In this document: one piece after another, positions 4,326 through 52,179 of the stretch
Position numbering within the stretch: the stretch's first letter is position 1
Layout: each line of letters starts with the position of its first letter
Assembly (NCBI GenBank): GCA_964640195.1
Contig: CAZXIC010000003.1
Span: 20,438 to 84,437 of the forward strand
DNA from: an uncultured archaeon
GTDB lineage: Archaea; Iainarchaeota; Iainarchaeia; Iainarchaeales; GCA-2688035
DNA: 64,000 nucleotides
Direction of reading: 5' to 3'
The notes under the pieces: generated by a model
What the model saw: the letters and a program-made list of their open reading frames with translations, nothing else
Told to the model about the DNA's origin: nothing
The model's database searches: none
Position numbers and translations under genes: made by a program

Positions 4326-4868
4326 TTACTGCTTTTGCCGCTTTCCGCCGAAGCTTGCGGCAACCCTCCCGTACGCAATATCGAACAGCAGGAAAGCGGC
4401 AAAGTAAACCATTTCAAACGCGCCGAGCAGGGCAAATGCAAGTACTGCTATTTTCATAAAAAAGCGGTAGCGGAAAAACAATTCAACAAATTTAACCTTA
4501 ACCGTGTTTTTATCTGCGTAATTATTTCCCACTTCGTCCAGAACGCCGGCAATTGTGAGCACAATTAACGGGGCAATTAAGAACGAGAAGGCGCTCGCCC
4601 AATACAGCACTGCAACCACAATTATTGCACCTACAAAGAATGCCAGGTTGTCAACCTTGCGCCCTAGCAGGCAGCTCAGCAGCACTGCCATCAGAATCGT
4701 TGCAGCCGGCGCGCTTGACAGCATCGTGAAAGCAAAAAGCAGTGCGGTTGGAATTGCGAGCAGGAAAGCGGCGCGCTTGCTGAACGCTGCCCTGTCAAAA
4801 GCAGCATCTATCGCAGCGAGCAATGCGCCAAGAAAAGGAAAAGAGACAAGCAAGAACAGTTCGGGCAT
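4326..4868 (-). CDS. Polytopic membrane protein, unknown family
   Basis: Start moved to the ATG at 4868 (MPELFLLVSFPFLG...). Several hydrophobic helices. No recognisable motif. Confidence 0.45.
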   Translation of the reverse strand: MPELFLLVSFPFLGALLAAIDAAFDRAAFSKRAAFLLAIPTALLFAFTMLSSAPAATILMAVLLSCLLGRKVDNLAFFVGAIIVVAVLYWASAFSFLIAPLIVLTIAGVLDEVGNNYADKNTVKVKFVELFFRYRFFMKIAVLAFALLGAFEMVYFAAFLLFDIAYGRVAASFGGKRQKQ

Positions 4869-4891
4869 ATGGGGTCTGAGATAAAATAAAA

Positions 4892-5689
4892 CTATCTTAG
4901 AAGATTTGTTAATTTTTCCCAAGGTTTATTATTAAAACCCCGGAGTACAATATTGAAGTGCCTTTTTTCCAATAATAGCAGTGGGGGGTTAACCGCCAAT
5001 GCTAGCCCTGCTGAATTGAATAGCTCTAGGTCCTCAACACTATTTCCTGCAAAAAAAATTCTATTTTTATCTTTAGATTTTAAACAATATTTTCTTAATA
5101 CCTCTTTTTTAAATGTAGGCAAATCTAGAAAATTCATTTCATATTCCCCGCTAAACTTCTTTTTCCCCCTGGAGTCAATTTTATAATCCATGCTCCAATG
5201 GCCATCAAAAGATAATTCTTTTACAACAATATCTGCAATAAATTTTGGAGCCAGAGATACCAATATAGAGTTAATGCCTTTACTCTTCAAGAATTTGGTA
5301 AATTCCCCTACTCCGACACATAAATTGATTATAAATTTTTGGGCGCAAGAAGAAAATTCCGCATAACTTTCATTCTTAAGAAGAAGAATAAATTTGTTAT
5401 AAATATCATAAAATTCCATCTTTTTGCTTAGCGATATTAAACTATTTAATCTTGCCTTTTTTTTAATATATTTTTTTTCACCAAGGAGAGCATGCTCTGC
5501 AAATATCTTCATTGTAACGTCTAAAATAAAAAAAGAGGGGTATATTGTTCCATCCAAATCAAAGAATGCATACTTAGTATTATCTAATTTGACTTTTATC
5601 TCCTCAAGCGTAAGTTCATTTCCTATAAAGACTCCTGCGGAAACTTTAGTATACTCTTTACCCAAATTATAAAAAGTATTTTCCATCAT
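4892..5689 (-). CDS. HAD-superfamily hydrolase (HAD-IB/SerB-like)
   Basis: Motif I is FFDLDGTIYPSF, with GNSVEDLELF (motif IV-like) near the C-terminus. AT-rich gene. Confidence 0.6.
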   Translation of the reverse strand: MMENTFYNLGKEYTKVSAGVFIGNELTLEEIKVKLDNTKYAFFDLDGTIYPSFFILDVTMKIFAEHALLGEKKYIKKKARLNSLISLSKKMEFYDIYNKFILLLKNESYAEFSSCAQKFIINLCVGVGEFTKFLKSKGINSILVSLAPKFIADIVVKELSFDGHWSMDYKIDSRGKKKFSGEYEMNFLDLPTFKKEVLRKYCLKSKDKNRIFFAGNSVEDLELFNSAGLALAVNPPLLLLEKRHFNIVLRGFNNKPWEKLTNLLR

Positions 5690-6446
5690 ATTTCCTGGAA
5701 ATTTTTACTATGCCTCTTAAAATTCTTAAGCCTTTTTCTGTTTCAATAAGGTTACCTAAATGGACTGCATCTGCTCCTTGAGCAAAAAGTTTTTTTGCTT
5801 GCTCAATTTTTTTTATACCGCTTGTGGGGATAAGAAATAAGTCAGTATTTCTTTTAATTAATCCAATATGATCCAATGGAGGAGGCAACATTGCACCAGA
5901 ACCTCCTGCCATTATATAGAAACGCATGCCTAAATATTGAGCGGCTAATGCCATGGCTAAACTAAGTTCTGGCTTTTTGCGTGGTATAGGAAAGGACCTT
6001 GCCAGCCAATTCGATGAACCTACAACCCCTCGTTCATCAAATACATAGGCTGTAGGCAATAACTCAAAATTTTTTTTACTCATTGGGATTGCATTTAGTA
6101 TCAGATTATCCCTAAGAAAGAATATGTTTTCTGCATTTAAGACACTCATCCAATAAGCTGCTGTTTTGTCTTTAATTCCTCTTAAAAGGCCAAGAGAATT
6201 ATTTGTGATATAACTTACTGTAGTAAAATCAAAATCTTTAGTCGCAATTTTAATTACATTTTGCATCTGGGCTGCATTTATAATACTCCCTCCAATTGCA
6301 ATGTGGGAGATATTAAGTTCTTGAATCTCCTTTAAAACCAAATGAAGGTGGCTCTCGCTATATTCTTCTGGGTCTATCTGCGGTATTACGAGGGGATGTT
6401 CTGCCCTAAGTTTGTATATCTTTTTCTCGATTGGGCCAATTTTCAA
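5667..6446 (-). CDS. GGGPS/PcrB-family prenyltransferase (geranylgeranylglyceryl-phosphate-synthase-like TIM barrel)
   Basis: The motif series QIDPEE, IAIGGS, VLNAEN, YIMAGGSGA and GADAVHLGNLIE parallels KLDPD, ISGT/GGS, VLNS, YxExGSGA and GADxIVVGN of GGGPS/PcrB. Overlaps the HAD gene by 23 nt. Confidence 0.7.
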   Translation of the reverse strand: MKIGPIEKKIYKLRAEHPLVIPQIDPEEYSESHLHLVLKEIQELNISHIAIGGSIINAAQMQNVIKIATKDFDFTTVSYITNNSLGLLRGIKDKTAAYWMSVLNAENIFFLRDNLILNAIPMSKKNFELLPTAYVFDERGVVGSSNWLARSFPIPRKKPELSLAMALAAQYLGMRFYIMAGGSGAMLPPPLDHIGLIKRNTDLFLIPTSGIKKIEQAKKLFAQGADAVHLGNLIETEKGLRILRGIVKISRKYDGKYFL

Positions 6447-6452
6447 TGCGGT

Positions 6453-7586
6453 TCACCCTTCTGAAAATATTAGAGCTAAATGTCCTTGGGAAAGATCTAT
6501 CGAAGGTTTTCTAAACAAAATGTTCTTATTTAAAGCTTTACTATATATCCCACTCAACAAACCACTAATCATTATAAATTCTACATCTTTAGCATATTTA
6601 GTCCATGGAAAATGATTTATAACTACCTGTTGTTTAGTACCCGGCAACGCAATAACCTCCCCCCATCCTAGCGCGGATAAGAGTTCTACTACACTTTGCA
6701 AATCTTTCATGCCAAATTCAGGAAATAAGTTTTTGCCTGTCGAAACAGCTATTTCAAACATTTTGTCTCTCATAACTTTGGGCAAGGCTAATTCAAGCAT
6801 ATAGATTGCACTAACCTCCATAAGAAATAACCTTTCTGCCCCGTGGGTGATTATCCCCCTATTGTACTTGAAAAGTTTAGAATCTAGAAATGTTTGAAAA
6901 GATTTTTTGTATCTAATTTTTGTCTCTATATTAAGTTTTCTGTAAGTAGCGAAATCAGGCTTAAGATCATCCACGTTTGTTTCCTTGAATACGCCCGAAG
7001 AAAAATATTTTTCTAAGATTTGAGGAACCGCACATTTAACCTTACAAGTATGCTCTTTGCCAGCAAATTTACTATCGTACAAGCAACCTTCAATTTTTGG
7101 TTCTTGTAATATCCATGCCACTACACCTGCCGCGCCCCCTGTTGCTAAGAAGTAATCATATCCCAATTTTCGGCATACGGCAAAATTTCTTAAAGAATAA
7201 TCAACAGTTCGATTTTCAACATTGGTACTTTGTGCTATCTCTGTAGCATAGGTCCCCTCCACAAATTTACTTGCAATAGTGATCCATTTTTTTACTGCAT
7301 TACCAGGATGGTCCTTAATATTTTCAAATCTACCAAGTTGTGAAAATCGATAGCCAAATCTTTTACCTAAAGAGTACATTACTTGCTTCCCCCTATCCCC
7401 AAAACCTCCTACCAGATTCTTCTCTAAGTTAACAAAGAAAGATTCTGGGACCAACAATTGTCTGGCAAAAATATTGGTTTTCCCAGATATTTTGAAATCC
7501 ACAAAGCCAGGCATGTTGAAAATAAGTGCTCTGGGCATTATGTATCGTTGGACATAAAATCGCACTACTTTGTCTTGAAGATCCAT
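6453..7586 (-). CDS. Tandem V4R (4-vinyl-reductase) domain protein
   Basis: The first half ends in GGAAGVVAWILQEPKIEGCLYDSKFAGKEHTCKVKC (a V4R C-terminal Cys pattern). The second half carries LSALGWGEV. Alignable by eye with the single-domain V4R ORFs at 12239..12808 and 49435..49998. Confidence 0.6.
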   Translation of the reverse strand: MDLQDKVVRFYVQRYIMPRALIFNMPGFVDFKISGKTNIFARQLLVPESFFVNLEKNLVGGFGDRGKQVMYSLGKRFGYRFSQLGRFENIKDHPGNAVKKWITIASKFVEGTYATEIAQSTNVENRTVDYSLRNFAVCRKLGYDYFLATGGAAGVVAWILQEPKIEGCLYDSKFAGKEHTCKVKCAVPQILEKYFSSGVFKETNVDDLKPDFATYRKLNIETKIRYKKSFQTFLDSKLFKYNRGIITHGAERLFLMEVSAIYMLELALPKVMRDKMFEIAVSTGKNLFPEFGMKDLQSVVELLSALGWGEVIALPGTKQQVVINHFPWTKYAKDVEFIMISGLLSGIYSKALNKNILFRKPSIDLSQGHLALIFSEG

Positions 7587-7595
7587 CGTCTCAAC

Positions 7596-8396
7596 CTAAG
7601 ACTCAATCTCAAACTCAATTCCTTTGCTAGTTATATTATAAGATTTTATGCCCCCATCTATTGAGGAGTATCTCATCTTTCTAACTTGTATTGTTCGATT
7701 AAATTGTTCCCCTACGGTCAATACATTTAGAACTAAAACACCATCCGTTATAAATTCACTCACCCCATCTGCGCTCAGGGCTTTTATTTCTTCAGATAAT
7801 TCACTTGTAAGCAAGCTTGTAACCCCATATTTCTTCAATTCTTTTATTAGTTTGTACAAAATGCTTTTTGCCACAATCTGCTCCGTTCTTGGAATCGGTG
7901 AAACTGTTTCCGCTATTTGCACAAGTGAGAAGCCGCCTTTTTCTCCCAGCCCGCCGATTATAAGAGCGTCAGTCAGCGTGGTCATGCTGTCAACTGTTAC
8001 GCGCTTGGGCTTGAATTCCTTGATTAAAACATCAACTTTCTGCATAAAATCGTCTCCTGAAGTGATATCAAAATACAGGATCTTAATCAGATTCTTGCTT
8101 TGCAGCGCCTTCAAGTCCCAGCCAAACTTTTCGGCATGCTTTTGCAATTCCTCTTCACTCTGCTCCGTGCTGATGTAAAGCCCTTTCTCGCCAAAAACCT
8201 GGGCGCCATTTATCAAAAACTGCAGGCAAAGAGTGCTCTTACCAGTTCCAGCGCCGCCACTGACCAAAACAAGGTTTGCCTCAGGAATGCCACCCATCAG
8301 CACCTTGTCTAAGCCCTGAATGCCTGTTTTTGTCCTGGACATTTCAATAATATAACCGTCCTCTTGTATATAAATTTTTCTTAAAGGAGAAAGCAT
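7596..8396 (-). CDS. KaiC-like / RecA-superfamily ATPase (single domain)
   Basis: TGIQGLDKVLMGGIPEANLVLVSGGAGTGKSTLCLQFLINGA (Walker A) and RVTVDSMT (Walker B-like). An alternative ATG at 8342 (MSRTKTG) is the likelier start. Confidence 0.85.
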   Translation of the reverse strand: MLSPLRKIYIQEDGYIIEMSRTKTGIQGLDKVLMGGIPEANLVLVSGGAGTGKSTLCLQFLINGAQVFGEKGLYISTEQSEEELQKHAEKFGWDLKALQSKNLIKILYFDITSGDDFMQKVDVLIKEFKPKRVTVDSMTTLTDALIIGGLGEKGGFSLVQIAETVSPIPRTEQIVAKSILYKLIKELKKYGVTSLLTSELSEEIKALSADGVSEFITDGVLVLNVLTVGEQFNRTIQVRKMRYSSIDGGIKSYNITSKGIEFEIES

Positions 8397-8406
8397 AGAT
8401 AAAGGC

Positions 8407-9224
8407 TTATTTGAAGCAGGTCATTGTTTGCTTCCTTAGCTCTTCAGCCAGCCGGGGTTCTTTGAGGAATTTCACCAGCACCTTCGTTTTTCTCTCAAAA
8501 ACCGAGTGGAAGAAATCATCAATGTTCAACTCTTTTACAGTCTTTGTTTTTGAGTATATTTCATTCAGTTTCTGCTTTATTTCAGGCGAATAGAAAACCT
8601 GCAGAACAAAGTTACCAAGAACTACAAGGTCAAAGGTAGAGGCAACATCGACACCTATTTTTGATTTTATGCCTGTTTTGTTCCAGAAATCAGCGCACCA
8701 ACGGTCAATTTCATCTTTTCCTTTCACAAGTGAGTAAGCATCAAAAAGCATTCCCAAGTCCTTAATGTTTGCGTATTCCTCTCTTGAAAGGAACAGGGGG
8801 ATCCACAAATGATTCCAATTCAAACAAAGAAGTGGCTTTTTAGGTAAAAGAGGCAGGAACTTTCCGAGTGAATCAATCAAAAACAGGTCAACGGCATAAA
8901 TCGTGTCAAACTCCAGCGTCCTGCCCTCAATGCTCTTGATGAAGTCTTGGGTGTATGCTGCGTGCTGTCCCTGGAAGAACTTTTGCCCTTCGTCAATCCA
9001 GTGCAGGGAAAGAGAGTAGCCTTCATCAGTTTTTTCAATGACAGACTCCTGAACCAGCTCGCCCAGCGCCTTGTGCACTGCCTGATAAGATACTGGCTCT
9101 TTTGACTGCTTTTTACCCTGTTGAAGATTTCCTTTGCGCTGAGCGGCCATTGCTCACCCAGAATCTGAATTATCGTGCCTTTTGTCCCGCCTTCCTTCCC
9201 AAAGGCAAGCAGAGCCCTAGCCAT
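8407..9224 (-). pseudogene. wHTH-containing protein interrupted by a 1-nt frameshift in an A5 run
   Basis: ORFs 8877..9224 and 8407..9150 join if one A is added to the coding-strand run (plus-strand T run 9110-9114). The join reads ...EIFNRVKKQSKEPVSYQAVHKALGELVQESVIEK. Confidence 0.6.
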
Positions 9225-9421: not shown

Positions 9422-10600
9422 ATGAAAACAAAACCCGATATCGAGTTTTCAGTTGCCACTAACTGGGACCCCAAGCTGCTTCATGGAATACAAGATTACC
9501 CAATTCACTCAATTTATGGAAAACTAAAATTTGATATTTTGGGCGGGGGCAGGAACCCACAAAAACTCCCTGTAGTCACACCCAGCCAAGTTGAAGAACA
9601 CGTCAAACAAGCACGAGAACAAGGAATAGAATTTTTCTACCTTCTAAACACAAACTCCACAAACAACAAGGAATTCACACCCCAATTCCATAAACAAATC
9701 TACAACCAACTAGAATGGCTCTCGAAAATCGGAACAGACCGCGTCACCATCGCACTCCCATTCCTCGCAAAAATAGTCAAAGAAAATTTTCCAAACCTCA
9801 AAATCCACGTTTCTAAAATGGCAAGAGTCAGCACCGCTAAAAGAGCAATGTACTGGGCAGAAATGGGAGCAGCCTCGGTCTGCCTAGACACCTACATAAC
9901 AAGAAACTTTGACAGGCTAGCAGAAATAAGCGATTCAGTAGACCTAGAACTCGAACTCCTAGCCAACGACGCCTGCCTCTTCCAATGCCCATACGACAAC
10001 TACCATAACGCCACCGAAAGCAATGTTTCACAAGAAAACACCAAAACCAGTTACTTCAGCTATTGCACATTCTCCTGCAAACAAAAATTCTGGTCAAACC
10101 CATCCGAAATAATCAGAAGCATGTTCATCCGCCCCGAAGACCTACAAGCCTACAGCCAAGTCGGAATCAAAAGATTCAAGCTCATTGACAGAATAAAACC
10201 CACCGAATGGATGCTCAACATGCTTAAAGCATACTCAGAGCAAAAATACGATGGAAACCTAGCCGACCTCTTCGGCTTTTACAACACTTACCAAAAAAAA
10301 CCAGAAAACCAAAAACCAAAACGATTGAAACCAGGCCAAGCAAAATCATTCGCACAAATACGGCGCCTGAAGTCATCAAACTATTTCAACCTTGACATCT
10401 TCATCGATAACAACAAACTCGATGGCTTTCTCAACCACTTCAAAAAACAATCATGCGAACAAAGCGCCTGCGGCATAGACTGCAAATACTGCGCAGCCAT
10501 AGCAAAAAAAGCCATTAAAATCAACAAAAAAAACAGGGACACAATCCTCGCCAACCTAAAACTCGTCCTCGGCAAGTTTCACAAAGGCCAACTCACATGA
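9422..10600 (+). CDS. Peptidase-U32-family-like protein (tentative)
   Basis: TIM-barrel-like N-terminal pattern (EFSVATNWDP...IYGKL...GGGR...GIEFFYLLNTN) and LELELLANDACLFQCPY resemble archaeal U32-family members. Cys-rich C-terminus. Not verified. Confidence 0.45.
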   Translation: MKTKPDIEFSVATNWDPKLLHGIQDYPIHSIYGKLKFDILGGGRNPQKLPVVTPSQVEEHVKQAREQGIEFFYLLNTNSTNNKEFTPQFHKQIYNQLEWLSKIGTDRVTIALPFLAKIVKENFPNLKIHVSKMARVSTAKRAMYWAEMGAASVCLDTYITRNFDRLAEISDSVDLELELLANDACLFQCPYDNYHNATESNVSQENTKTSYFSYCTFSCKQKFWSNPSEIIRSMFIRPEDLQAYSQVGIKRFKLIDRIKPTEWMLNMLKAYSEQKYDGNLADLFGFYNTYQKKPENQKPKRLKPGQAKSFAQIRRLKSSNYFNLDIFIDNNKLDGFLNHFKKQSCEQSACGIDCKYCAAIAKKAIKINKKNRDTILANLKLVLGKFHKGQLT

Positions 10601-10668: not shown

Positions 10669-11412
10669 ATGGTTTTCTTTATGAGCGGCGTTAAAACAAT
10701 CATCTTCGATTTTGATGGGACACTCGCAGACACGAGAGAATGCATAATAGAAACACTCAACCTTATCCTCGAAAGAAACGGTTTTCAAAAAGCCCAGCCA
10801 AAACAAGTCCACCGGTTAATAGGCCTGACTCTCGAACAAAACTTTGAAGCACTCGCAAAAAACGCGACACCCGCACAAATCCAAAAAATGGCAAGGGAAT
10901 ACAGGCGGACATACAACCGAATAGCACCCGCAAAAACAAGACTATTTAGGGGAGTAAAAGAAACACTCGAACAACTAAAAGCGATGGGAGTAAAAACCGC
11001 GATAACAACAAGCAAAGGTCTCGAAGGAACCAAAAGAATACTTGAAGCAACAGGAATACTGCCCCTGTTTGACGCAATAATCGTAGAAGCCAGGGTCAAA
11101 AACAAAAAACCAGCGCCAGACATAGTAAAACTAGCGATGAAAAAACTCCACGCCAAACCCCAAGAAACACTGGTAGTTGGAGACACTGTCTGGGACATAG
11201 AAATGGGGAAAAGAGCCGGAACAAAAACCTGTGGCATAACACACGGAAACCACCCAAGAAAAACCCTGCAAAGAGCAAAACCCGACCACATCATAGACAG
11301 AATTACTACGCTAACAAAAAGCACTGTGCCCCGAAGACAAAACAGGCTACGACCCAGACCACGAAAAACCAACACCTCTAAAAGAAACATAACAAGACAC
11401 AAACACCCATAA
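10669..11412 (+). CDS. HAD-IA phosphatase (phosphoglycolate-phosphatase-like) with a basic C-terminal tail
   Basis: IIFDFDGTLADT (motif I), TTSK (motif II), VVGDTVWDIEMGKRAG (motif IV). The last ~30 aa (PRRQNRLRPRPRKTNTSKRNITRHKHP) lie outside the fold. Confidence 0.8.
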   Translation: MVFFMSGVKTIIFDFDGTLADTRECIIETLNLILERNGFQKAQPKQVHRLIGLTLEQNFEALAKNATPAQIQKMAREYRRTYNRIAPAKTRLFRGVKETLEQLKAMGVKTAITTSKGLEGTKRILEATGILPLFDAIIVEARVKNKKPAPDIVKLAMKKLHAKPQETLVVGDTVWDIEMGKRAGTKTCGITHGNHPRKTLQRAKPDHIIDRITTLTKSTVPRRQNRLRPRPRKTNTSKRNITRHKHP

Positions 11413-12238: not shown

Positions 12239-12808
12239 TCAAACCTCCAGCTCCAGCTGTGCCTGCACCCGCTTGTCCGATACGTCGAATTCGTGCTGTT
12301 TTTTGATTATGAACTCGCAGTCTTTTTCGCCCAAGGCAATGCAGTGGGTTTCCACGCACTCGACGTTTGACTGGAATACCTTACTGAAGAGGCCGGCAAG
12401 GATGCCGCGGACTATGTGGTCACTCGGCGTCTTGACCTTTCCGCGCAGCCTGCCGGTTAGGGGGTTGTTCAAAACGCGCACAATCGCCTTCTTTCTCTGA
12501 AAATCAAGGTCTACGTTCTTTATGTTGCCCCAGCCGGAAGCAACAAAATACTGTTCCAAAAAGTTAACCATCTTCTCGCCCTTGAAGCCGAACTCCAAGC
12601 CGAACTGGCTGACAAGGCGCTCCCTCACGCTCTGCTTGACATTGTAGTAAACGTGCCGCTCAAAAGCAGGATTGTCAGTGTTAAGCATTCCGGAAAGGAG
12701 TTCAGTGGGGCAGATAAGGAAAGGCAGGTTAACAAGGAAAAAGTTGCTGTTTTTGTAATGCAGACCATTCGTGAAAATAAACCTGTCGTAAAAGGAATTA
12801 AGCATCAC
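12239..12808 (-). CDS. V4R-domain protein
   Basis: FVASGWGNIKNVDLDF...VECVETHCIALGEKDCEFIIKK is the V4R GWG plus CxxxGxxxCEF pattern. Confidence 0.7.
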   Translation of the reverse strand: MMLNSFYDRFIFTNGLHYKNSNFFLVNLPFLICPTELLSGMLNTDNPAFERHVYYNVKQSVRERLVSQFGLEFGFKGEKMVNFLEQYFVASGWGNIKNVDLDFQRKKAIVRVLNNPLTGRLRGKVKTPSDHIVRGILAGLFSKVFQSNVECVETHCIALGEKDCEFIIKKQHEFDVSDKRVQAQLELEV

Positions 12809-13149
12809 AACTCACTTTCGGGTTTGTGGCTGAATTCAAGAATCTTGTGGATTGTCCTAAGCTTTTCTGCCTGCAGGGGCCACACGACAAGAGCGTTGCC
12901 AACGCGCTTGCTGAGCAACAACTGCTTTTCAACCAGTTTTTTGAGGTAATAGGCATACTTGGTGCTGGCCTGCTTTTTCCGCTTGCGCGAGGAAAGGTCT
13001 TCCCGGAAATGCTCTGCGATTTCAAGTGCAGTGGTCGGCCAGTGCTCCAAGACGAGCTCGAAAATCTCTTTTTCCCTTCCGTGCAAAGCAAAGGCAAAGG
13101 AGGAACTGCTACCAGGCAGCAATTCTGGCATGGCAGGTGTGTTGGGCAT
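12805..13149 (-). CDS. Small winged-helix transcriptional regulator
   Basis: GREKEIFELVLEHWPTTALEIAEHF...YAYYLKKLVEKQLLLSKRVGNALVVWP. Has a 4-nt overlap with the V4R gene. Confidence 0.55.
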   Translation of the reverse strand: MPNTPAMPELLPGSSSSFAFALHGREKEIFELVLEHWPTTALEIAEHFREDLSSRKRKKQASTKYAYYLKKLVEKQLLLSKRVGNALVVWPLQAEKLRTIHKILEFSHKPESEL

Positions 13150-13225: not shown

Positions 13226-13918
13226 TTAGAGCAGCGACAGCGCTGTCAGGAGCAGGACACTGACAAGCGCTCCTGTTATGAAGAACAGGGGCTTGCCTGA
13301 CTCTTCCCTGGGCACCATGTCTCTTATCACGATGTAGAGAAGCGCCCCTATCACGAAGGAAAAGAGGAGGTGGTAGGCTTGAGGGTTGATGTTTATGATT
13401 GAGGCAAAGGCGGCGCCAAGGAGGGGAGAGAGAGGCAGCAGGATGCCGGCAAAGCTCTTTCTGTTGAAATGCGCGTCAATGTGGTTTAGGCTGAGGCTGC
13501 TGCTGAAGGTGTGCAGAAGCAACGGCACGAAAATCAAGAGGCCTGAAACGTAGTTTTCAATGCTGAACGCAAGGAACAAGGCAATGCCAACAACAAAGTG
13601 GTTTATGAAGAAGCCGAGCACGTGGATTGAGGCAAGGTCCTGCAGCAGCTCACCCTTGTTCTTGATGTGCTGGTAGATGTACTTCTCTCCCAGGTGGAAC
13701 AGGATAAAGCCGGAAAGGATTAAGAGGTAGATGGTTTCGCCGATGTGCTCTATGCCGGTAAAGAACTCGGGGAGGAGGCGCAGGAAGATTATCGCGAGGA
13801 ATAAGCCTGCGGAGAAGGAAATCAGGTGCGTGTGGTATTTTTCTGCATGTCCAGAGTAGGACTCGGAGAAAAAGTGCACTAATGCAAGGATTCCTGCAAG
13901 AACGAAAACCACTAGCAT
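13226..13918 (-). CDS. ZIP-family (ZupT-like) metal permease (tentative)
   Basis: Polytopic, with His-rich helices (HVLGFFINHFVVGIALF, LLLHTFSSS). Size and topology fit ZIP. Confidence 0.5.
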   Translation of the reverse strand: MLVVFVLAGILALVHFFSESYSGHAEKYHTHLISFSAGLFLAIIFLRLLPEFFTGIEHIGETIYLLILSGFILFHLGEKYIYQHIKNKGELLQDLASIHVLGFFINHFVVGIALFLAFSIENYVSGLLIFVPLLLHTFSSSLSLNHIDAHFNRKSFAGILLPLSPLLGAAFASIININPQAYHLLFSFVIGALLYIVIRDMVPREESGKPLFFITGALVSVLLLTALSLL

Positions 13919-28065: not shown

Positions 28066-28137
28066 GGGCTCGTGGTCTAGTGGCATGACATCACCCTTAC
28101 AAGGTGAGGGTCGCCGGTTCGATTCCGGCCGGGCCCA
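28066..28137 (+). tRNA. tRNA-Val(TAC)
   Basis: Manual cloverleaf: GGGCTCG...CGGGCCC-A, anticodon loop CTTACAA, T arm GCCGG-TTCGATT-CCGGC. Confidence 0.9.
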
Positions 28138-28172: not shown

Positions 28173-28317
28173 TGGACCCTGCGAGATTCGAACTCGCGAT
28201 TTCCACCACACTGGAGCCGCAACGTGTTTTTTATAAGCGAATAATTTTTTGCAGTGCTTTTTTTTAAAGGCTTGAAGGCTCTGCCAAGGTGGCGTCCTAC
28301 CGCTAGACTAAGGGCCC
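28173..28317 (-). tRNA. tRNA-Ala(GGC) with a 73-nt intron at the canonical 37/38 position
   Basis: Exons 28282-28317 and 28173-28208. G3:U70 Ala identity pair. Anticodon loop TTGGCA|intron. GAGCC/GGCTC helix flanks the splice sites (BHB-like). Confidence 0.8.
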
Positions 28318-38113: not shown

Positions 38114-38824
38114 TCACTTCATTGCCTCCCACAGCACCTGCTCCCTTGGCTTTACCGCAATGCCCTTGTTTGTTATTTCAAAGGGGTGCACGTTTTTGCT
38201 GTGGGCGGTGCCCCGCATTTTTCTGACGAAAATGCTTCTGTGGGGCGGAATGAAGTATAGGGCGATTACGCCGTCGGCAACAAATTCCTCGATACCGAAG
38301 GCGCTGAACTCTGTTCTTCCCTCCCTGGTTTCTGCGGTGAAGACTGTTGTGCAGTCCAGTTCCTTCAACCCGTCCAAGAGTTCAAACAACTTTGGCCTGA
38401 ATTCCGTGCGCTCCATCCACACTGCAAATGCAGTCGTTGAGTCAATAACAAGGCGCTTTGCGCCCATCTCGTTAACTGTTTTGGCAACCAGGTCAAGCTC
38501 TTCGTTTATTTTGTCCACAACCGCTTTTGCGTCCCTCGCATAACCCAGATTCATCTTGTAGATGTTCATCAGCTTTTTTTCCTGCAGGGGCTGAATGTCC
38601 CAGTCAAAGCTCTGCATGTCCCAGCTGATTGCCTTCATATTGCTTTCAATCGTTACAAAGACGCCGGGCTCAGCGAACTGCCTTGCCCCCTCATAAATGT
38701 ACTGCATGCTCAGAATGCTTTTCCCTGTGCCATTTGCTCCGCTGAGCAGAACACTGCTGCCCTCTGGCAGGCCACCTTCAAGCAGCTGGTCAAGGCCGAG
38801 GATGCCTGTCTGGACGCGCCGCAT
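38114..38824 (-). CDS. KaiC-like / RecA-superfamily ATPase (single domain)
   Basis: TGILGLDQLLEGGLPEGSSVLLSGANGTGKSILSMQYIYEGA, LVIDSTT. Confidence 0.85.
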   Translation of the reverse strand: MRRVQTGILGLDQLLEGGLPEGSSVLLSGANGTGKSILSMQYIYEGARQFAEPGVFVTIESNMKAISWDMQSFDWDIQPLQEKKLMNIYKMNLGYARDAKAVVDKINEELDLVAKTVNEMGAKRLVIDSTTAFAVWMERTEFRPKLFELLDGLKELDCTTVFTAETREGRTEFSAFGIEEFVADGVIALYFIPPHRSIFVRKMRGTAHSKNVHPFEITNKGIAVKPREQVLWEAMK

Positions 38825-47742: not shown

Positions 47743-48000
47743 CTACTTGCTTTTCTCCAAGGCAGTCGCTATTTCTTTCCCCAGTCTTGTTCTACGATAA
47801 ATTTTTCCAACCCTTGCCTTTGGGTTAATGCATTTAACGAGTTTCTGTTTTCGCAGTTCTGTCAGGGCATGGCTTACGTTTGACAGGCTTGTTTCTGTCT
47901 TCTCGCTGATTTGCGTCGGTGTCATCGGGCCGGAGATGACAAGCAACACACGCTTTCTGTTCAGGCCGCTGACCACAAACGAAAATTTGTCCCAATCCAT
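47743..48000 (-). CDS. ArsR-like small wHTH regulator
   Basis: RKRVLLVISGPMTPTQISEKTETSLSNVSHALTELRKQKLV. Confidence 0.6.
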   Translation of the reverse strand: MDWDKFSFVVSGLNRKRVLLVISGPMTPTQISEKTETSLSNVSHALTELRKQKLVKCINPKARVGKIYRRTRLGKEIATALEKSK

Positions 48001-48284: not shown

Positions 48285-48701
48285 ATGATGCTTGGGAAAA
48301 AATCCGTGGCGGTACTTGATGAAAAGCTTTCCACAGGAGTAGCATTTAATACGCTGGCGCACATGGCCTTGTCGTTGGGAAAAAACTCGGATGGCCTGAT
48401 AGCAAAAGTGGAAATAAGGGACGCATCCGGCACGACCCATAAAGGCCTTTCCGAATACCCGTTTATCATACTCAAGGCAGATTCTGGCAGAATAAGAAAG
48501 ATTGTAAGCGGAGCCAAGAAAAACGACAGATTGACAGTGGTTGATTTCCCCAAGCAGGCGTACACGGAATATGCTGATGAAGACTTTCAAAAAGCCGTTT
48601 CAAAAGCAAAGGAAGAGAATCTGGTTTATTACGGCATGGCCCTCTTCGGACCGGTTGAAGAAATAAACCGGCTAACCAAGGACCTGCCTCTGTGGAAATG
48701 A
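48285..48701 (+). CDS. DUF2000-family protein
   Basis: KSVAVLDEKLSTGVAFNTLAHMALSLG...YPFIILKADS...VVDFPKQA...YYGMALFGPVEEINRLTKDLPLW. Confidence 0.6.
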   Translation: MMLGKKSVAVLDEKLSTGVAFNTLAHMALSLGKNSDGLIAKVEIRDASGTTHKGLSEYPFIILKADSGRIRKIVSGAKKNDRLTVVDFPKQAYTEYADEDFQKAVSKAKEENLVYYGMALFGPVEEINRLTKDLPLWK

Positions 48702-48876: not shown

Positions 48877-49431
48877 TTAAAATAAAAGCGGAATTTTTGA
48901 TGGCTTAGTAGAAATTATTATTTCATATATCTTTGTAAAATTTTCTTTAAATTTTTTGTAATTTCTACTGTCATGAGCTTTTGCTGCCTTAACCATATAG
49001 TAGGTGCACTGAACAGCTTTCAAAAAATTATAATTTAATTTTTGCATCCAATTCCAGAATATCACAAACAAAGCGTTTAATTTTTTTCCGTGCCTCCAGT
49101 TATAAACAATTTCAACTAATAAAATAGTATCATATTTCGCTTTTAAAAGTTTGTTAAGTCCTTTTGCTAATGCTTTGGATTTATTATAGTAACTGTTCTC
49201 TTTAGGATAATCCTTCTTTTCATAAAACTGTTGAGCCAAATCGTAATTTATGTAAATTTCTTTTATACGTTTTGCCCCTTGTGTTGCAATTTTTTTATCA
49301 TAACCCATTTCCTGGATTAAGTTTTCCGTGTTTTTCTGCATTCCATTGTAGTCTGCATTATCATGAAAAATCATTATATTATCCGAAAGCAGTTTTCCTA
49401 ATTTATTTGCGTTATAGGTAAGCATAAGCAT
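48877..49431 (-). CDS. Hypothetical alpha-helical protein (last gene of the UppS-V4R operon)
   Basis: AT-rich ORF, 3-nt gap to the V4R gene. No motif recognised. Confidence 0.4.
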   Translation of the reverse strand: MLMLTYNANKLGKLLSDNIMIFHDNADYNGMQKNTENLIQEMGYDKKIATQGAKRIKEIYINYDLAQQFYEKKDYPKENSYYNKSKALAKGLNKLLKAKYDTILLVEIVYNWRHGKKLNALFVIFWNWMQKLNYNFLKAVQCTYYMVKAAKAHDSRNYKKFKENFTKIYEIIISTKPSKIPLLF

Positions 49432-49434
49432 AAA

Positions 49435-49998
49435 TTATTTTTCTAAAATCTGATATTTGAATTCTTTATAATTTTCTAACATGTATTTTCTGGGGCCAAA
49501 AACAAGCTCACATTCTTTTGCTCCCTGAGTAACACATTTGGTTTCAACCCAATCAATATCTTCTTCAAAAACAGCAGTAGCCCCTCCTGCATATAATGCC
49601 CTACAAAAATGCTCAACAGGTTTATCGGTTTTACTCCTAAAGAATTTGCCCATTGGGGCATTTTCAATATGAAATGTGCCGCTATGATTATACGAATCAA
49701 AGTCAACTAATTTATTTTTTCCCCAGCCGCTAGCTGTTGCAGTGTCTATAAGCCAATGAATATAATTTCTTGGCTCAAAGCCGTACTTGTTTCTTACAGA
49801 TGTTGCCCATTCTTTGTGAAACGATGTTCTAATATCTTCATAAATTTTTGGAATGAGTTTTTCATCTTGAACCATAGATTTTGTAAGGCTTATGAGTATT
49901 TCCTGGGGAATTATTAAAGCTCTCTGACCCATTAGGACTATTTCTCCATCAGAAAATGCCAATTGCTTTACCGTCAATAATTTATCAAATATGCTCAT
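49435..49998 (-). CDS. V4R-domain protein
   Basis: ATASGWGKNKLVDFD...IDWVETKCVTQGAKECELVFG. Start at the ATG at 49998, overlapping the uppS stop (ATGA). Confidence 0.7.
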   Translation of the reverse strand: MSIFDKLLTVKQLAFSDGEIVLMGQRALIIPQEILISLTKSMVQDEKLIPKIYEDIRTSFHKEWATSVRNKYGFEPRNYIHWLIDTATASGWGKNKLVDFDSYNHSGTFHIENAPMGKFFRSKTDKPVEHFCRALYAGGATAVFEEDIDWVETKCVTQGAKECELVFGPRKYMLENYKEFKYQILEK

Positions 49999-50669
49999 TT
50001 TCCTAACCTTCTGTCCCGGCTGTAGTATTCCATCAGGATGTTGTCCAGTTTTTCTTTGTCCAGGTCCGGGTAATAGTAGTCGGTGAACACGAATTCCGCA
50101 TATGCCGTTTGGTAGAGGGGGCAAGTGGAAAACCTTTTCTCATAGCCTGTTCTGATTACCAGATCAATAGGCGTTTTTATTTCCAAGTATTTGTAAAAAT
50201 CCTCTGGGTTCTTGAGTGTTTCGCCCTTCATTTTTTCTGTTGCCTTCATGATCTCCCACTGGCCATTATAAGCAGCCAGCAGGTTGCATTGCGGCCCATT
50301 GTTCTGCTTTGTTGCCCCTTCCAGGTTTTTCATTGCATTCAGGTATTCCTTTGGCAGCAGTTCCCTGTCACCGGCAAAATTGAATCTTATTTTTGCTTCC
50401 CTAAACTCCTTGTTTTTTGCCCACTCGTTATAGAGTTCTATCTGTGCATGGAATATGTCTTCCAGGGACTCCTTTTTCCTTTTCAGGACATTGTTCCTGG
50501 AGATAGCAAAAATAGATAATTCTTTCACGTTTTTGTCAATTAAAAAATATTTTACTAGCTGCGTTGTTATGTGGTCTGAAATGAATTTGTAGACCACTTT
50601 TGCATCTATGTTTTTGGCCTTTGCATACCTTCTGTTCCCGTCAGGGATGACCAAAACATGCTTAAGCAT
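49995..50669 (-). CDS. uppS: cis-Prenyltransferase (undecaprenyl/dehydrodolichyl diphosphate synthase family)
   Basis: VLVIPDGNRRYAK, IFAISRNN, DLVIRTGYEKRFS. Confidence 0.85.
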   Translation of the reverse strand: MLKHVLVIPDGNRRYAKAKNIDAKVVYKFISDHITTQLVKYFLIDKNVKELSIFAISRNNVLKRKKESLEDIFHAQIELYNEWAKNKEFREAKIRFNFAGDRELLPKEYLNAMKNLEGATKQNNGPQCNLLAAYNGQWEIMKATEKMKGETLKNPEDFYKYLEIKTPIDLVIRTGYEKRFSTCPLYQTAYAEFVFTDYYYPDLDKEKLDNILMEYYSRDRRLGK

Positions 50670-50764
50670 TTTAACAGCCTGCCTTTAATATATACTCTTA
50701 AATATATTTATTTAAGCACCTTAAAAAGGTTCTGGAAAGCCCTAATTCGCGAAGCAGAGGCTGT

Positions 50765-51706
50765 TTAATCGAATTGCCCTAGTTTTTCTTTCTTGGCTTT
50801 CTTGAGCGGGTCTTCTGTTATTTCTATTCCGTTTTTCCCTATTTTAAACAGTATGAAGTCTTTAACGTGATTGCTCTCCCTCAGCTTTCTTATCTTGATG
50901 CTTCTGAAGTCCTCGACTCCCATTCCAACATGGTACAAAACAATTACTCCGTCTGTCATGAAGTCTGAAACGCCGTCCCTGCTTAACGCTTCCGAATCCT
51001 CGGGCTGCTCGCTTATCAGGAAGGATGTCATTTTCTGGCTTCCAAACGCTGCTAGGATTCTTCTGATTTCTTTTCTTTTCAGCCTTTCCTCGGACTTCGG
51101 CACAAGACTTAACCCTTCCTGGATTTCTGCAATGTCATAGGGCATGTCGTAGGTTATCTGATCAAGTATTTCAGTTGCCATCGCATCCAGGGAGTCAACC
51201 GCAACAATGTCCGCGGAATTATGCTCAACCATTTCAAGAAGCTGGTCGACAACGGGAGTGCACTGCGATTTAATTGCCTTTATCTCTTCCCTGATTTTTG
51301 TTTCCTTTTCCAGAACCTTTGATTTTTTTTCTGGGGAAGTGTATTTCAGGTTTCCGAGGTCCTCCAAGGTTTTATTCATTTTCATTATCTGCTCTCTTCT
51401 CAGAATGTCGTCCTTGTACAGGTCAAGGTACACCAAATGCAGATGCTGGGTCTTGTTAAAGTTTATCCCGTATTGCGCCATCTGCCTAGTCATCTTCCAG
51501 TCAGGCTGCTCCAGTGAAATGTAAACGCAGTTCTTTTTTTCATTCAAGGAATTATGATTTAATATCTGCGACACAAAAGTCGTTTTGCATGTTCCGGTTT
51601 TTCCTGCCACAAGGATTGAATCGCCGCTGGGTATGCCTCCGCCCAGTGCTTCATCAAAGATGCTTTTCCCGCTTACATCCTTTATTCCAGTAAGTATCCT
51701 GTCCAA
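50765..51706 (-). CDS. KaiC-like ATPase with a ~60-aa charged insertion
   Basis: GGGIPSGDSILVAGKTGTCKTTFVSQIL, IVAVDSLD, FMTDGVIVLY. Coiled-coil insert (EKKSKVLEKETKIREEIKAIK). Confidence 0.75.
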   Translation of the reverse strand: MDRILTGIKDVSGKSIFDEALGGGIPSGDSILVAGKTGTCKTTFVSQILNHNSLNEKKNCVYISLEQPDWKMTRQMAQYGINFNKTQHLHLVYLDLYKDDILRREQIMKMNKTLEDLGNLKYTSPEKKSKVLEKETKIREEIKAIKSQCTPVVDQLLEMVEHNSADIVAVDSLDAMATEILDQITYDMPYDIAEIQEGLSLVPKSEERLKRKEIRRILAAFGSQKMTSFLISEQPEDSEALSRDGVSDFMTDGVIVLYHVGMGVEDFRSIKIRKLRESNHVKDFILFKIGKNGIEITEDPLKKAKKEKLGQFD

Positions 51707-51786: not shown

Positions 51787-52179
51787 ATGGCAAAAAAGAG
51801 CATAAAGGCGGAATGGGAAGAATTAAGCAAGGGCATAACAGAGCCGGCCAGAAGAGTCAGGCGGCTGTATATTATTAGGGACTTTTATACGCATGATGAT
51901 ATTTTCAAGCGGCAGTTCGATGACATTTACAAGCTGGCTGCGGCAAAGGAATGGAAGGCGGAGAAAAGGGACAAGAAGATTGATGAGCTGCTGGATGAAG
52001 CAATCCTGCGGAGAACCATGCTCAGCTTTGAGTCAATGAAAAAGAACTATGAGGCAAGGAAAAGGGAGTTTGAGAAAATTGAAAAGGTATTAGGGCCGTT
52101 TATTGCAAAGAGCAGGAAGAAAAGGGAAAAAGAGCTGGAAAAGAAAAAGAAGGAGCTAAGGGACGTATTCCAGTCCTGA
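51787..52179 (+). CDS. Hypothetical K/E-rich helical protein
   Basis: ORF divergent from the KaiC-like gene. No motif recognised. Confidence 0.35.
   Translation: MAKKSIKAEWEELSKGITEPARRVRRLYIIRDFYTHDDIFKRQFDDIYKLAAAKEWKAEKRDKKIDELLDEAILRRTMLSFESMKKNYEARKREFEKIEKVLGPFIAKSRKKREKELEKKKKELRDVFQS

Follow-up and report, generated by a model that had tools for sequence, protein, structure and literature searches.

A 64,000-nucleotide stretch of DNA from an uncultured archaeon of the Iainarchaeota (contig CAZXIC010000003.1, positions 20,438 to 84,437; hereafter the window) carries at 48877-51706, on its minus strand, a four-gene cassette (unit 2) encoding a KaiC-like ATPase (KaiC2), a cis-prenyltransferase of the UppS family, a V4R protein and an orphan helical protein. 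This locus is one copy of a module conserved in Iainarchaeota, a DPANN lineage, in which KaiC-like and V4R proteins are encoded beside enzymes that make or use polyprenyl diphosphates. A related cassette (unit 1, 4892-9224) combines a KaiC-like ATPase (KaiC1) and a 377-aa protein, predicted to be a tandem V4R, with a PcrB-type prenyltransferase and a HAD-family hydrolase. An earlier reading, made from the sequence only, had proposed that the association of KaiC, prenyltransferase and V4R is functional and not accidental, and conserved linkage of both units in relatives supports this. The association extends beyond what that reading described, to UbiA, GGR-like reductases, a UbiE/CMAS-like methyltransferase and a sister clade of UppS, and the module recurs beside at least four classes of isoprenoid enzyme.

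A role in binding hydrophobic ligands, with signalling in cis or in trans, is ascribed to V4R domains, and the function of stand-alone archaeal V4R proteins, prokaryotic relatives of the eukaryotic TRAPP subunit Bet3, has been described as unresolved (PMC2253512). For KaiC-like ATPases a part as signalling hubs of archaea has been proposed (cited in PMC5847659). The mechanism that we infer, and hold with middling confidence, is that V4R senses or holds an isoprenoid lipid and that KaiC would be the ATPase hub for isoprenoid-lipid synthesis.

The unit-2 cassette and its recurrence in related genomes

The ORF (open reading frame) list of the window contains the four minus-strand genes that the sequence-only reading had placed in unit 2. 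KaiC2 (50765-51706, 313 aa, TTG start) is a single-domain RecA-type ATPase (PF06745, E=5e-38). It is followed, after an AT-rich spacer (50670-50764), by the cis-prenyltransferase (49995-50669, 224 aa; PF01255, E=7.5e-43), the stand-alone V4R protein (49435-49998, 187 aa; sub-threshold with PF02830 and recognised through its family profile) and the all-helical orphan (48877-49431, 184 aa), the fourth member of the cassette, whose homologues occupy the same slot in relatives. The gaps between KaiC and UppS (95 nt) and between V4R and the orphan (3 nt) were measured as claimed, and the ATGA overlap at 49995-49998 is legible in the sequence (GGAAAATGAGC), the V4R ATG (49998-49996) overlapping the uppS TGA (49997-49995). 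The start of V4R at this overlap is genuine, because the N-terminus MSIFDKL is invariant in four orthologues; the same 4-nt overlap of UppS and V4R is present in the related loci L002, L004, L011 and L012. The impression that the region is AT-rich also held, with a GC fraction of 0.32 for 49001-50000 versus 0.46 for the whole window; by gene, the values are 0.42 for UppS, 0.35 for V4R and 0.28 for the orphan. TATA-like runs (TAAATAAATATATTTAAGAGTATATATTAAAGG) lie about 20-45 nt upstream of the uppS ATG, and the spacer may hold a candidate internal archaeal promoter; because the 95-nt spacer with these runs separates the three genes from KaiC2, UppS, V4R and the orphan may be driven from their own promoter in this genome. 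The gap between KaiC and UppS in L002 and L004 is 7 nt only.

The closest relatives of the unit-2 UppS (43-61% identity) come from metagenomes of Diapherotrites/Iainarchaeota. Scanning with an alignment of the UppS clade, and keeping one genome per species, gave 80 loci, whose ORFs were searched with hidden Markov models (HMMs) of the cassette proteins. Two of the metagenome relatives, L002 and L004, carry the same four-gene cassette, KaiC-UppS-V4R-orphan, between entirely different flanks; their proteins are 56-57% (UppS), 46-47% (V4R) and 28-32% (KaiC) identical to those of the window, and the orphan matches more weakly. Gene order varies among the scanned loci: KaiC-V4R-orphan-UppS in the complete genome of archaeon GW2011_AR10 (L009); KaiC-UppS-V4R followed by a UbiA prenyltransferase and a convergent GGR-like flavoprotein gene in an Iainarchaeum metagenome-assembled genome (L011); a GGR-like gene beside UppS-V4R-orphan in L012; V4R-KaiC-V4R-HD phosphohydrolase-UppS in L013; and KaiC-UppS at a contig end in L028. 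The adjacency of uppS, V4R and KaiC, on which the proposal of a functional association had been staked, is therefore found in related genomes, the cassette being present in L002, L004, L009, L011-L013 and L028.

The V4R-linked UppS genes are monophyletic in a neighbour-joining (NJ) tree. In a sister UppS clade (L016, L017) a UbiA-UppS operon stands beside KaiC, after which a tandem V4R-like protein about 335 aa long is encoded, and L016 additionally carries a trans-prenyl diphosphate synthase. Taking the two clades together, 9 of the 11 informative loci have V4R no more than two genes away from UppS; an adjacent V4R was found in 0 of 70 other archaeal UppS loci, from Thermoproteales, Micrarchaeota, Aenigmatarchaeota, Nanoarchaeota, Altiarchaeota and others (Fisher p=2e-10; 1e-5 to 2e-10 by the choice of loci counted). 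L070 was not counted as linked, because the V4R-like gene 1.7 kb from its UppS encodes a different, 393-aa protein and another gene lies between the two.

The same linkage is recovered when sampling starts from V4R, with no regard to the enzyme. A word-index search with the unit-2 V4R gave one non-self match, to which no genomic context was attached, and a scan of genome contigs with the V4R alignment gave no match. A scan of metagenomes with the V4R motif, blind to the enzyme, yielded four family-level loci with enough upstream sequence (L092, L093, L094 and L097), and a KaiC of the V4R-linked clade stands directly upstream in all four. L093 adds UbiA, a GGR-like gene and a protein of the Caroten_synth family; L097 reads KaiC-V4R-V4R-UbiA; in L092 and L094 the additions are a UbiE/CMAS-like methyltransferase and a membrane protein whose homologue in the window is encoded at 4326-4922. 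No KaiC is adjacent to the more distant, longer V4R proteins (L098-L113). The family of the 377-aa protein of unit 1 has about 90 relatives, and the contexts of three were examined: KaiC, tandem V4R, PcrB and HAD occur together in L089 (76% identity to the 377-aa protein) and, with an inserted GGR-like gene, in L090 (48%), and in L091 (36%) KaiC and tandem V4R are convergent with a methyltransferase and UppS.

By NJ analysis the V4R-linked KaiCs fall into a single clade of two groups, group A comprising KaiC1 of the window and the KaiCs of L089, L090, L011, L013 and L092, and group B comprising KaiC2 and those of L002, L004, L009, L028 and L093. In the alignment the members of this clade share an insert of some 26 residues that follows Walker B (QIAETVSPIPRTE). 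This insertion is not found in the third KaiC-like ATPase of the window (38114-38824, minus strand, 236 aa, GC 0.52), which lies outside the clade. In the trees, V4R subgroups follow the KaiC subgroup and not the enzyme: UppS or UbiA is found beside group B pairs, and UppS, PcrB or a methyltransferase beside group A pairs. Because their subgroups co-vary while the enzyme changes, this is the pattern expected if KaiC and V4R interacted and evolved together, with the enzyme as a client or target that can be exchanged.

The abundance of KaiC-like genes raises the question of whether there is any functional coupling at all, since AT-rich cassettes could be hitch-hiking as transferred islands. Three KaiC-like genes lie in the 64-kb window, three or four within 12-16 kb in L016 and L017, and both window cassettes have a lower GC fraction (0.28-0.44) than the window, in which many 1-kb bins reach 0.48-0.52, as is consistent with transfer. 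However, the linkage persists where the genes are reordered and the flanks are entirely different; it involves one KaiC clade only, with a signature insertion of its own; V4R-first sampling finds the same KaiC; no linkage (0/70) appears outside the UppS clade; and cassette GC equals flank GC in most of the other genomes (L002, L004, L089, L090). We give hitch-hiking hardly any probability, and in its pure form it is essentially excluded. The two cassettes being AT-rich here, while GC equals that of the flanks in most relatives, suggests that both were acquired, possibly recently, in this lineage.

Membership in an anti-phage defence system was also considered and rejected, PADLOC matches being absent for the proteins of unit 2 (0/4 against the PADLOC defence models); KaiC1 alone gave a weak match, to mad8 (E=5.8e-5).

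The proteins of unit 2

The UppS protein can be aligned over its whole length with solved UppS structures, and it scores 147 bits with PF01255 (gathering score 27), covering profile positions 1-219, and 115.4 bits with TIGR00055, the NCBIfam uppS equivalog (cutoff 109.55). The catalytic residues that are invariant in its clade are D10-G-N-R-R, N60, R64, R173, R179, E192 and the C-terminal R220-R221-x-G (RRLG), and the RTG...R...S block is also retained. The clade is specific to Iainarchaeota; its members are at least 42% identical to one another and no more than 38% identical to the other UppS of archaea. Judged by its alignment, the protein has intact catalytic motifs and is a member of a distinct clade.

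KaiC2 scores 131.1 bits with PF06745 and KaiC1 (7596-8396) 186.7 bits (E=5.6e-55), both over the gathering score of 26.6. KaiC2 is not a circadian KaiC, having a single domain and 313 aa and scoring 96.7 bits with NF006799 (cutoff 408) and 65.9 with TIGR02655 (cutoff 546), and no KaiB-like neighbour was found among the window ORFs and the Pfam matches near unit 2. Nor is it ArlH (NF052589, 40.9 bits against a cutoff of 215).

The V4R protein falls below the gathering score of PF02830 (27.7 bits against 31). Exhaustive searching with HMMER brought up some 370 representative relatives, which with few exceptions stand alone and are about 185 aa long; the orthologues are 46-53% identical to the unit-2 protein. 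The profile of this family, with the unit-2 protein as first row, matches MJ1460 (E=1e-9), PoxR (2.6e-7) and MopR (1.1e-6). In the family alignment G91-W92-G93, H130, R133, E152, C155 and C163 are invariant or nearly so, and H130, E152, C155 and C163 line up with the Cys/Glu/Cys/Cys of MJ1460, PoxR and MopR. Because the family profile matches solved V4R structures with aligned motifs, the protein at 49435-49998 is, by profile comparison, a genuine V4R despite the missed Pfam threshold, and the four aligned residues form a putative zinc site. It shares the V4R fold and the GWG and E-x-x-C...C motifs with MopR, PoxR and DmpR, MJ1460, MsvR and BchJ. It differs from the MopR family and MsvR in that it is not fused to an AAA+/HTH regulator or a DNA-binding domain and has a KaiC-like partner, and from the V4R sensor domains in having His where their metal site has its first Cys.

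A third V4R protein of the window (12239-12808, minus strand, 189 aa; here the V4R3 type) scores above the gathering score (PF02830, 46.9 bits) and is 25% identical to the unit-2 V4R over its full length (E=1e-24); it matches the NCBIfam MsvR model weakly (E=2.6e-6). Its subtype, with the N-terminus NSFYD[KR]FIFT, lies 0-6 kb from KaiC-V4R cassettes in L013, L092 and L089, and never directly after KaiC. The V4R at 5266-5898 in L013 scores 41.5 bits with PF02830. In the window the V4R3 gene overlaps by 4 nt an ORF of 114 aa (12805-13149, minus strand) that has no family match, and this ORF is preceded by a ZIP-family metal transporter (13226-13918, minus strand).

The conserved His/Glu/Cys/Cys set of the stand-alone V4R leads to a minor alternative, in which these residues would be a thiol or zinc sensor and V4R a redox or metal switch that would link lipid and polyprenol synthesis, via KaiC, to oxidative or metal stress, with no lipid ligand. 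MsvR, a V4R regulator of methanogens, is a model for such a switch. In favour of it, H130, E152, C155 and C163 are invariant or nearly so in the family, V4R3 weakly matches the MsvR model, and the ZIP transporter lies two genes from V4R3. However, the positions to which these residues align in MopR and PoxR are, as we take it, a structural zinc site of ligand-binding sensors; the tandem V4R of unit 1 is without these residues and retains the same context of KaiC and prenyl enzyme; and what recurs among the neighbouring genes is isoprenoid chemistry and not redox enzymes. We hold such a switch to be distinctly improbable.

The orphan protein had no match in Pfam, NCBIfam, a PDB profile search or PADLOC, and its single-sequence AlphaFold model is unusable (predicted local distance difference test score, pLDDT, 48). 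Homologues stand in the same position in L002, L004, L009 and L012; H23, D24, Y60, D64, A149, H153 and N157 are invariant in the family. The orphan is an accessory of the cassette. In L013 an HD-domain phosphohydrolase occupies its slot; the possibility that the orphan is a divergent HD phosphohydrolase was found unsupported, a comparison with that protein by hhalign being negative. There is a hint of a phosphate-handling or phosphohydrolase step in the module, because the orphan has invariant His, Asp, His and Asn residues, an HD protein replaces it in L013 and unit 1 has a HAD hydrolase.

Proposed roles of V4R and KaiC

In the mechanism that we favour, V4R would bind an isoprenoid intermediate or product, e.g. 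farnesyl or geranylgeranyl diphosphate (FPP/GGPP) or a polyprenyl mono- or diphosphate, and would signal its occupancy to the KaiC partner, whose ATPase or autophosphorylation state would tune the pathway. KaiC might act directly on the co-translated enzyme, or by way of the winged helix-turn-helix (wHTH) proteins whose genes stand in arrays next to many cassettes. Binding of polyprenyl phosphates by V4R, or modulation of UppS by it, is plausible as a candidate role. What the comparisons show is the gene content, the domains and folds, a linkage that is conserved though rearranged, the monophyly of the linked UppS and KaiC clades and the co-variation of KaiC with V4R; the identity of the ligand, the physical interactions and the regulatory output of the module are what we infer here.

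The wHTH proteins, of about 280 aa with an N-terminal wHTH and the motif SYQAVHK, are often found in arrays of three to five paralogues and flank cassettes in the window and in L002, L004, L009, L011, L013, L090, L092 and L094; no known family or structure was matched. In L016 (4350-4679) and L017 (10346-10678) a protein of about 110 aa, which by eye looks like a DNA-binding protein of AbrB/SpoVT type, is encoded ahead of KaiC and the tandem V4R-like protein, and it could be another candidate output regulator.

Makarova, Galperin and Koonin are said to have presented KaiC-like ATPases, in 2017, as hubs of archaeal signal transduction. The experimentally studied example is ArlH, a protein of the archaellum. 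The KaiC of the module is similar to these ATPases in having one RecA/KaiC-type domain (PF06745) with Walker A and B motifs, the Walker A of KaiC2 being deviant, and it is encoded beside a putative input protein and often beside wHTH output candidates; because KaiC adjoins both a ligand-binding input and such outputs, the module fits the hub concept. It differs in that the partner is V4R, the genes served are isoprenoid-lipid enzymes and KaiC has its own insertion of about 26 aa. As far as the literature that we found goes, a KaiC-like hub with V4R as input partner and isoprenoid lipids as target pathway is new: we found no paper tying KaiC to V4R, GGGPS, prenyl enzymes or 'hydrocarbon binding protein', and no mention of a KaiC-V4R association in literature on the lipid genes of Iainarchaeota.

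The main rival is that V4R is a stoichiometric lipid carrier or product-release chaperone, which would take the hydrophobic polyprenyl product or substrate from the soluble prenyltransferase (UppS, GGGPS) to a membrane enzyme such as UbiA and which the KaiC hexamer would load or unload with ATP. Parallels are the substrate chaperoning proposed for BchJ and the accessory proteins of SCP2 type in ubiquinone synthesis. In its fold V4R is a homologue of Bet3 (PMC2253512), and 6aq3, a Bet3-family structure annotated with a covalent palmitate, is among the fold matches of the unit-1 V4R; a lipid chain in a hydrophobic channel sets a precedent for a V4R-fold protein that holds an acyl or prenyl chain. 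The likeness to Bet3 and TRAPP concerns the fold and a possible lipid mode only, there being no TRAPP partners or GTPases at the module and no sign of vesicle tethering. Coupling of V4R to UppS is translational in the window, L002, L004, L011 and L012, through the ATGA overlap, and the gap between tandem V4R and PcrB in unit 1 is 6 nt; the orders UppS-V4R-UbiA (L011) and KaiC-V4R-V4R-UbiA (L097) place V4R between soluble and membrane enzyme. Product release by UppS is slow without detergent or lipid, a further point for a carrier. However, V4R subtypes follow KaiC subtypes and not enzymes, which is less expected for an enzyme-specific product carrier, the flanking wHTH arrays suggest a transcriptional output, and we know of no KaiC-family member that is a lipid-handling motor. 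We regard a carrier as possible but doubtful.

Non-catalytic lipid-binding or scaffold proteins accompany prenyl-lipid enzymes also in the heteromeric cis-prenyltransferases, NgBR/Nus1 with DHDDS, and in ubiquinone synthesis, where the lipid-binding UbiJ/UbiT act together with UbiU/UbiV. V4R differs from NgBR, which has the cis-prenyltransferase fold, and from SCP2 in being unrelated in fold, and an ATPase is part of the module. A partner of the NgBR type should be unnecessary here, because the unit-2 UppS retains its own C-terminal RxG (RRLG).

Unlikely, in our judgement, is the wider possibility that KaiC and V4R form an ATP-driven lipid-handling machine of DPANN archaea, in which a Bet3-like V4R would carry or salvage polyprenyl or ether-lipid intermediates, shuttling between soluble UppS or GGGPS and membrane-bound UbiA or GGR, and the KaiC hexamer would power loading and release. 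If true, this would give V4R a direct role in lipid trafficking that predates the eukaryotic TRAPP complex.

Several observations weigh against sensing by V4R and signalling through KaiC. A partner or carrier in stoichiometric amounts would account for the ATGA coupling of V4R to the enzyme no less well than a low-copy sensor would. The wHTH genes are not in the immediate vicinity of unit 2 of the window. Two members of the UppS clade, L010 (Diapherotrites CG08) and L014, are without partners, both on contigs that are short on at least one side. The window copy of KaiC2 might be impaired, because its Walker A reads GKTGTCKT, with Gly changed to Cys before the Lys (all orthologues have GTPGTGKS or GGAGTGKS), and because of a large insert: the charged insertion that had been noticed measures about 51 residues in the alignment and is not present in orthologues. 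KaiC2 retains Walker B (IVAVDS) and LEQ, and may be diverging in this genome. Because the tandem V4R of unit 1 is without the conserved Cys/His site, the stand-alone and tandem V4R types may work differently. As to novelty, the 2017 hub paper may list V4R neighbours.

To our knowledge, it is essentially unknown how archaea regulate or organise the synthesis of isoprenoid membrane lipids and of polyprenol glycan carriers. The KaiC-V4R module offers a concrete, testable handle on archaeal lipid regulation and on V4R function, both of which it opens to direct tests with a handful of soluble proteins. Its components are few, namely the soluble ATPase, the small ligand-binding V4R protein and, in UppS or GGGPS, an enzyme that is easily assayed. 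The KaiC-hub model, so far largely hypothetical, would gain from it a defined input and a defined target pathway, and the module bears on lipid management in the genome-reduced DPANN archaea.

Unit 1 and other features of the window

Unit 1 proved to be organised as the sequence-only reading had described it, with all its genes on the minus strand. KaiC1 (7596-8396, 266 aa, group A) is followed after 9 nt by the 377-aa protein (6453-7586), which is followed after 6 nt by the GGGPS/PcrB-family prenyltransferase (5667-6446, 259 aa; PF01884 E=5e-15, NF003198 E=6e-42); the latter overlaps by 23 nt the HAD-family hydrolase (4892-5689, 265 aa; PF12710). A polytopic membrane protein without Pfam match (4326-4922, 198 aa) overlaps the HAD gene by 31 nt, and its homologues adjoin KaiC-V4R pairs in L092 and L094 (jackhmmer, BLASTP).

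The 377-aa protein had also been called a V4R, which is borne out by its predicted fold. Sequence comparison with Pfam, BLASTP or the V4R family HMM gave no match to V4R, and hhalign gave a weak one between the C-terminal half and the V4R profile (28% probability). The AlphaFold model, built from an alignment of 45 homologues (pLDDT 90.4, predicted TM-score 0.89), has two similar alpha/beta halves, and Foldseek matches it with a probability of 1.00 to MopR/PoxR/DmpR and MJ1460 (TM-score about 0.5-0.58, normalised to the target); H-NOX, Bet3, TPC6 and palmitoylated TRAPPC3 (6aq3) are further matches. According to this model, the protein is tandem V4R-like, with two V4R-like halves. JGI names some of its homologues 'predicted hydrocarbon binding protein', a label that is presumably the annotation of COG1719 (V4R).

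Directly upstream of KaiC1, a wHTH protein of the SYQAVHK family is encoded in two frames (8407-9224, minus strand; frames 8877-9224 and 8407-9150), where full-length homologues elsewhere have about 280 aa. The split may be a real frameshift or the gene a pseudogene, because the identical truncated ORF of 247 aa is also called in a Logan assembly made independently from this sample. Divergent from unit 1 are genes for a Peptidase_U32-family protein (9422-10600, plus strand, 392 aa) and a second HAD hydrolase (10669-11412, plus strand). In L004 a similar U32 protein and a radical-SAM enzyme are encoded at a distance of about 5 kb from the UppS cassette. UbiU/UbiV, the O2-independent ubiquinone hydroxylases, belong to the U32 proteins, and a link of these neighbours to prenylated compounds is conceivable.

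Divergent from KaiC2, a charged, Lys/Glu-rich helical protein of 130 aa without Pfam match (51787-52179, plus strand) matches the protein at 5641-6186 of L009, which is likewise divergent from the cassette KaiC in archaeon GW2011_AR10 (BLASTP E=2e-15). To judge from this match, the conserved neighbourhood may include it as a fifth member. The flank downstream of unit 2 contains genes for an ArsR-type HTH protein (47743-48000, minus strand) and a DUF2000 protein (48285-48701, plus strand), and several small coiled-coil ORFs without assignment lie at 46.2-47.7 kb. Elsewhere in the window, an Rfam tRNA match of 145 nt (28173-28317, minus strand, 52.6 bits), which does not appear in the ARAGORN output and lies beside tRNA-Val (28066-28137), is probably an intron-containing archaeal tRNA.

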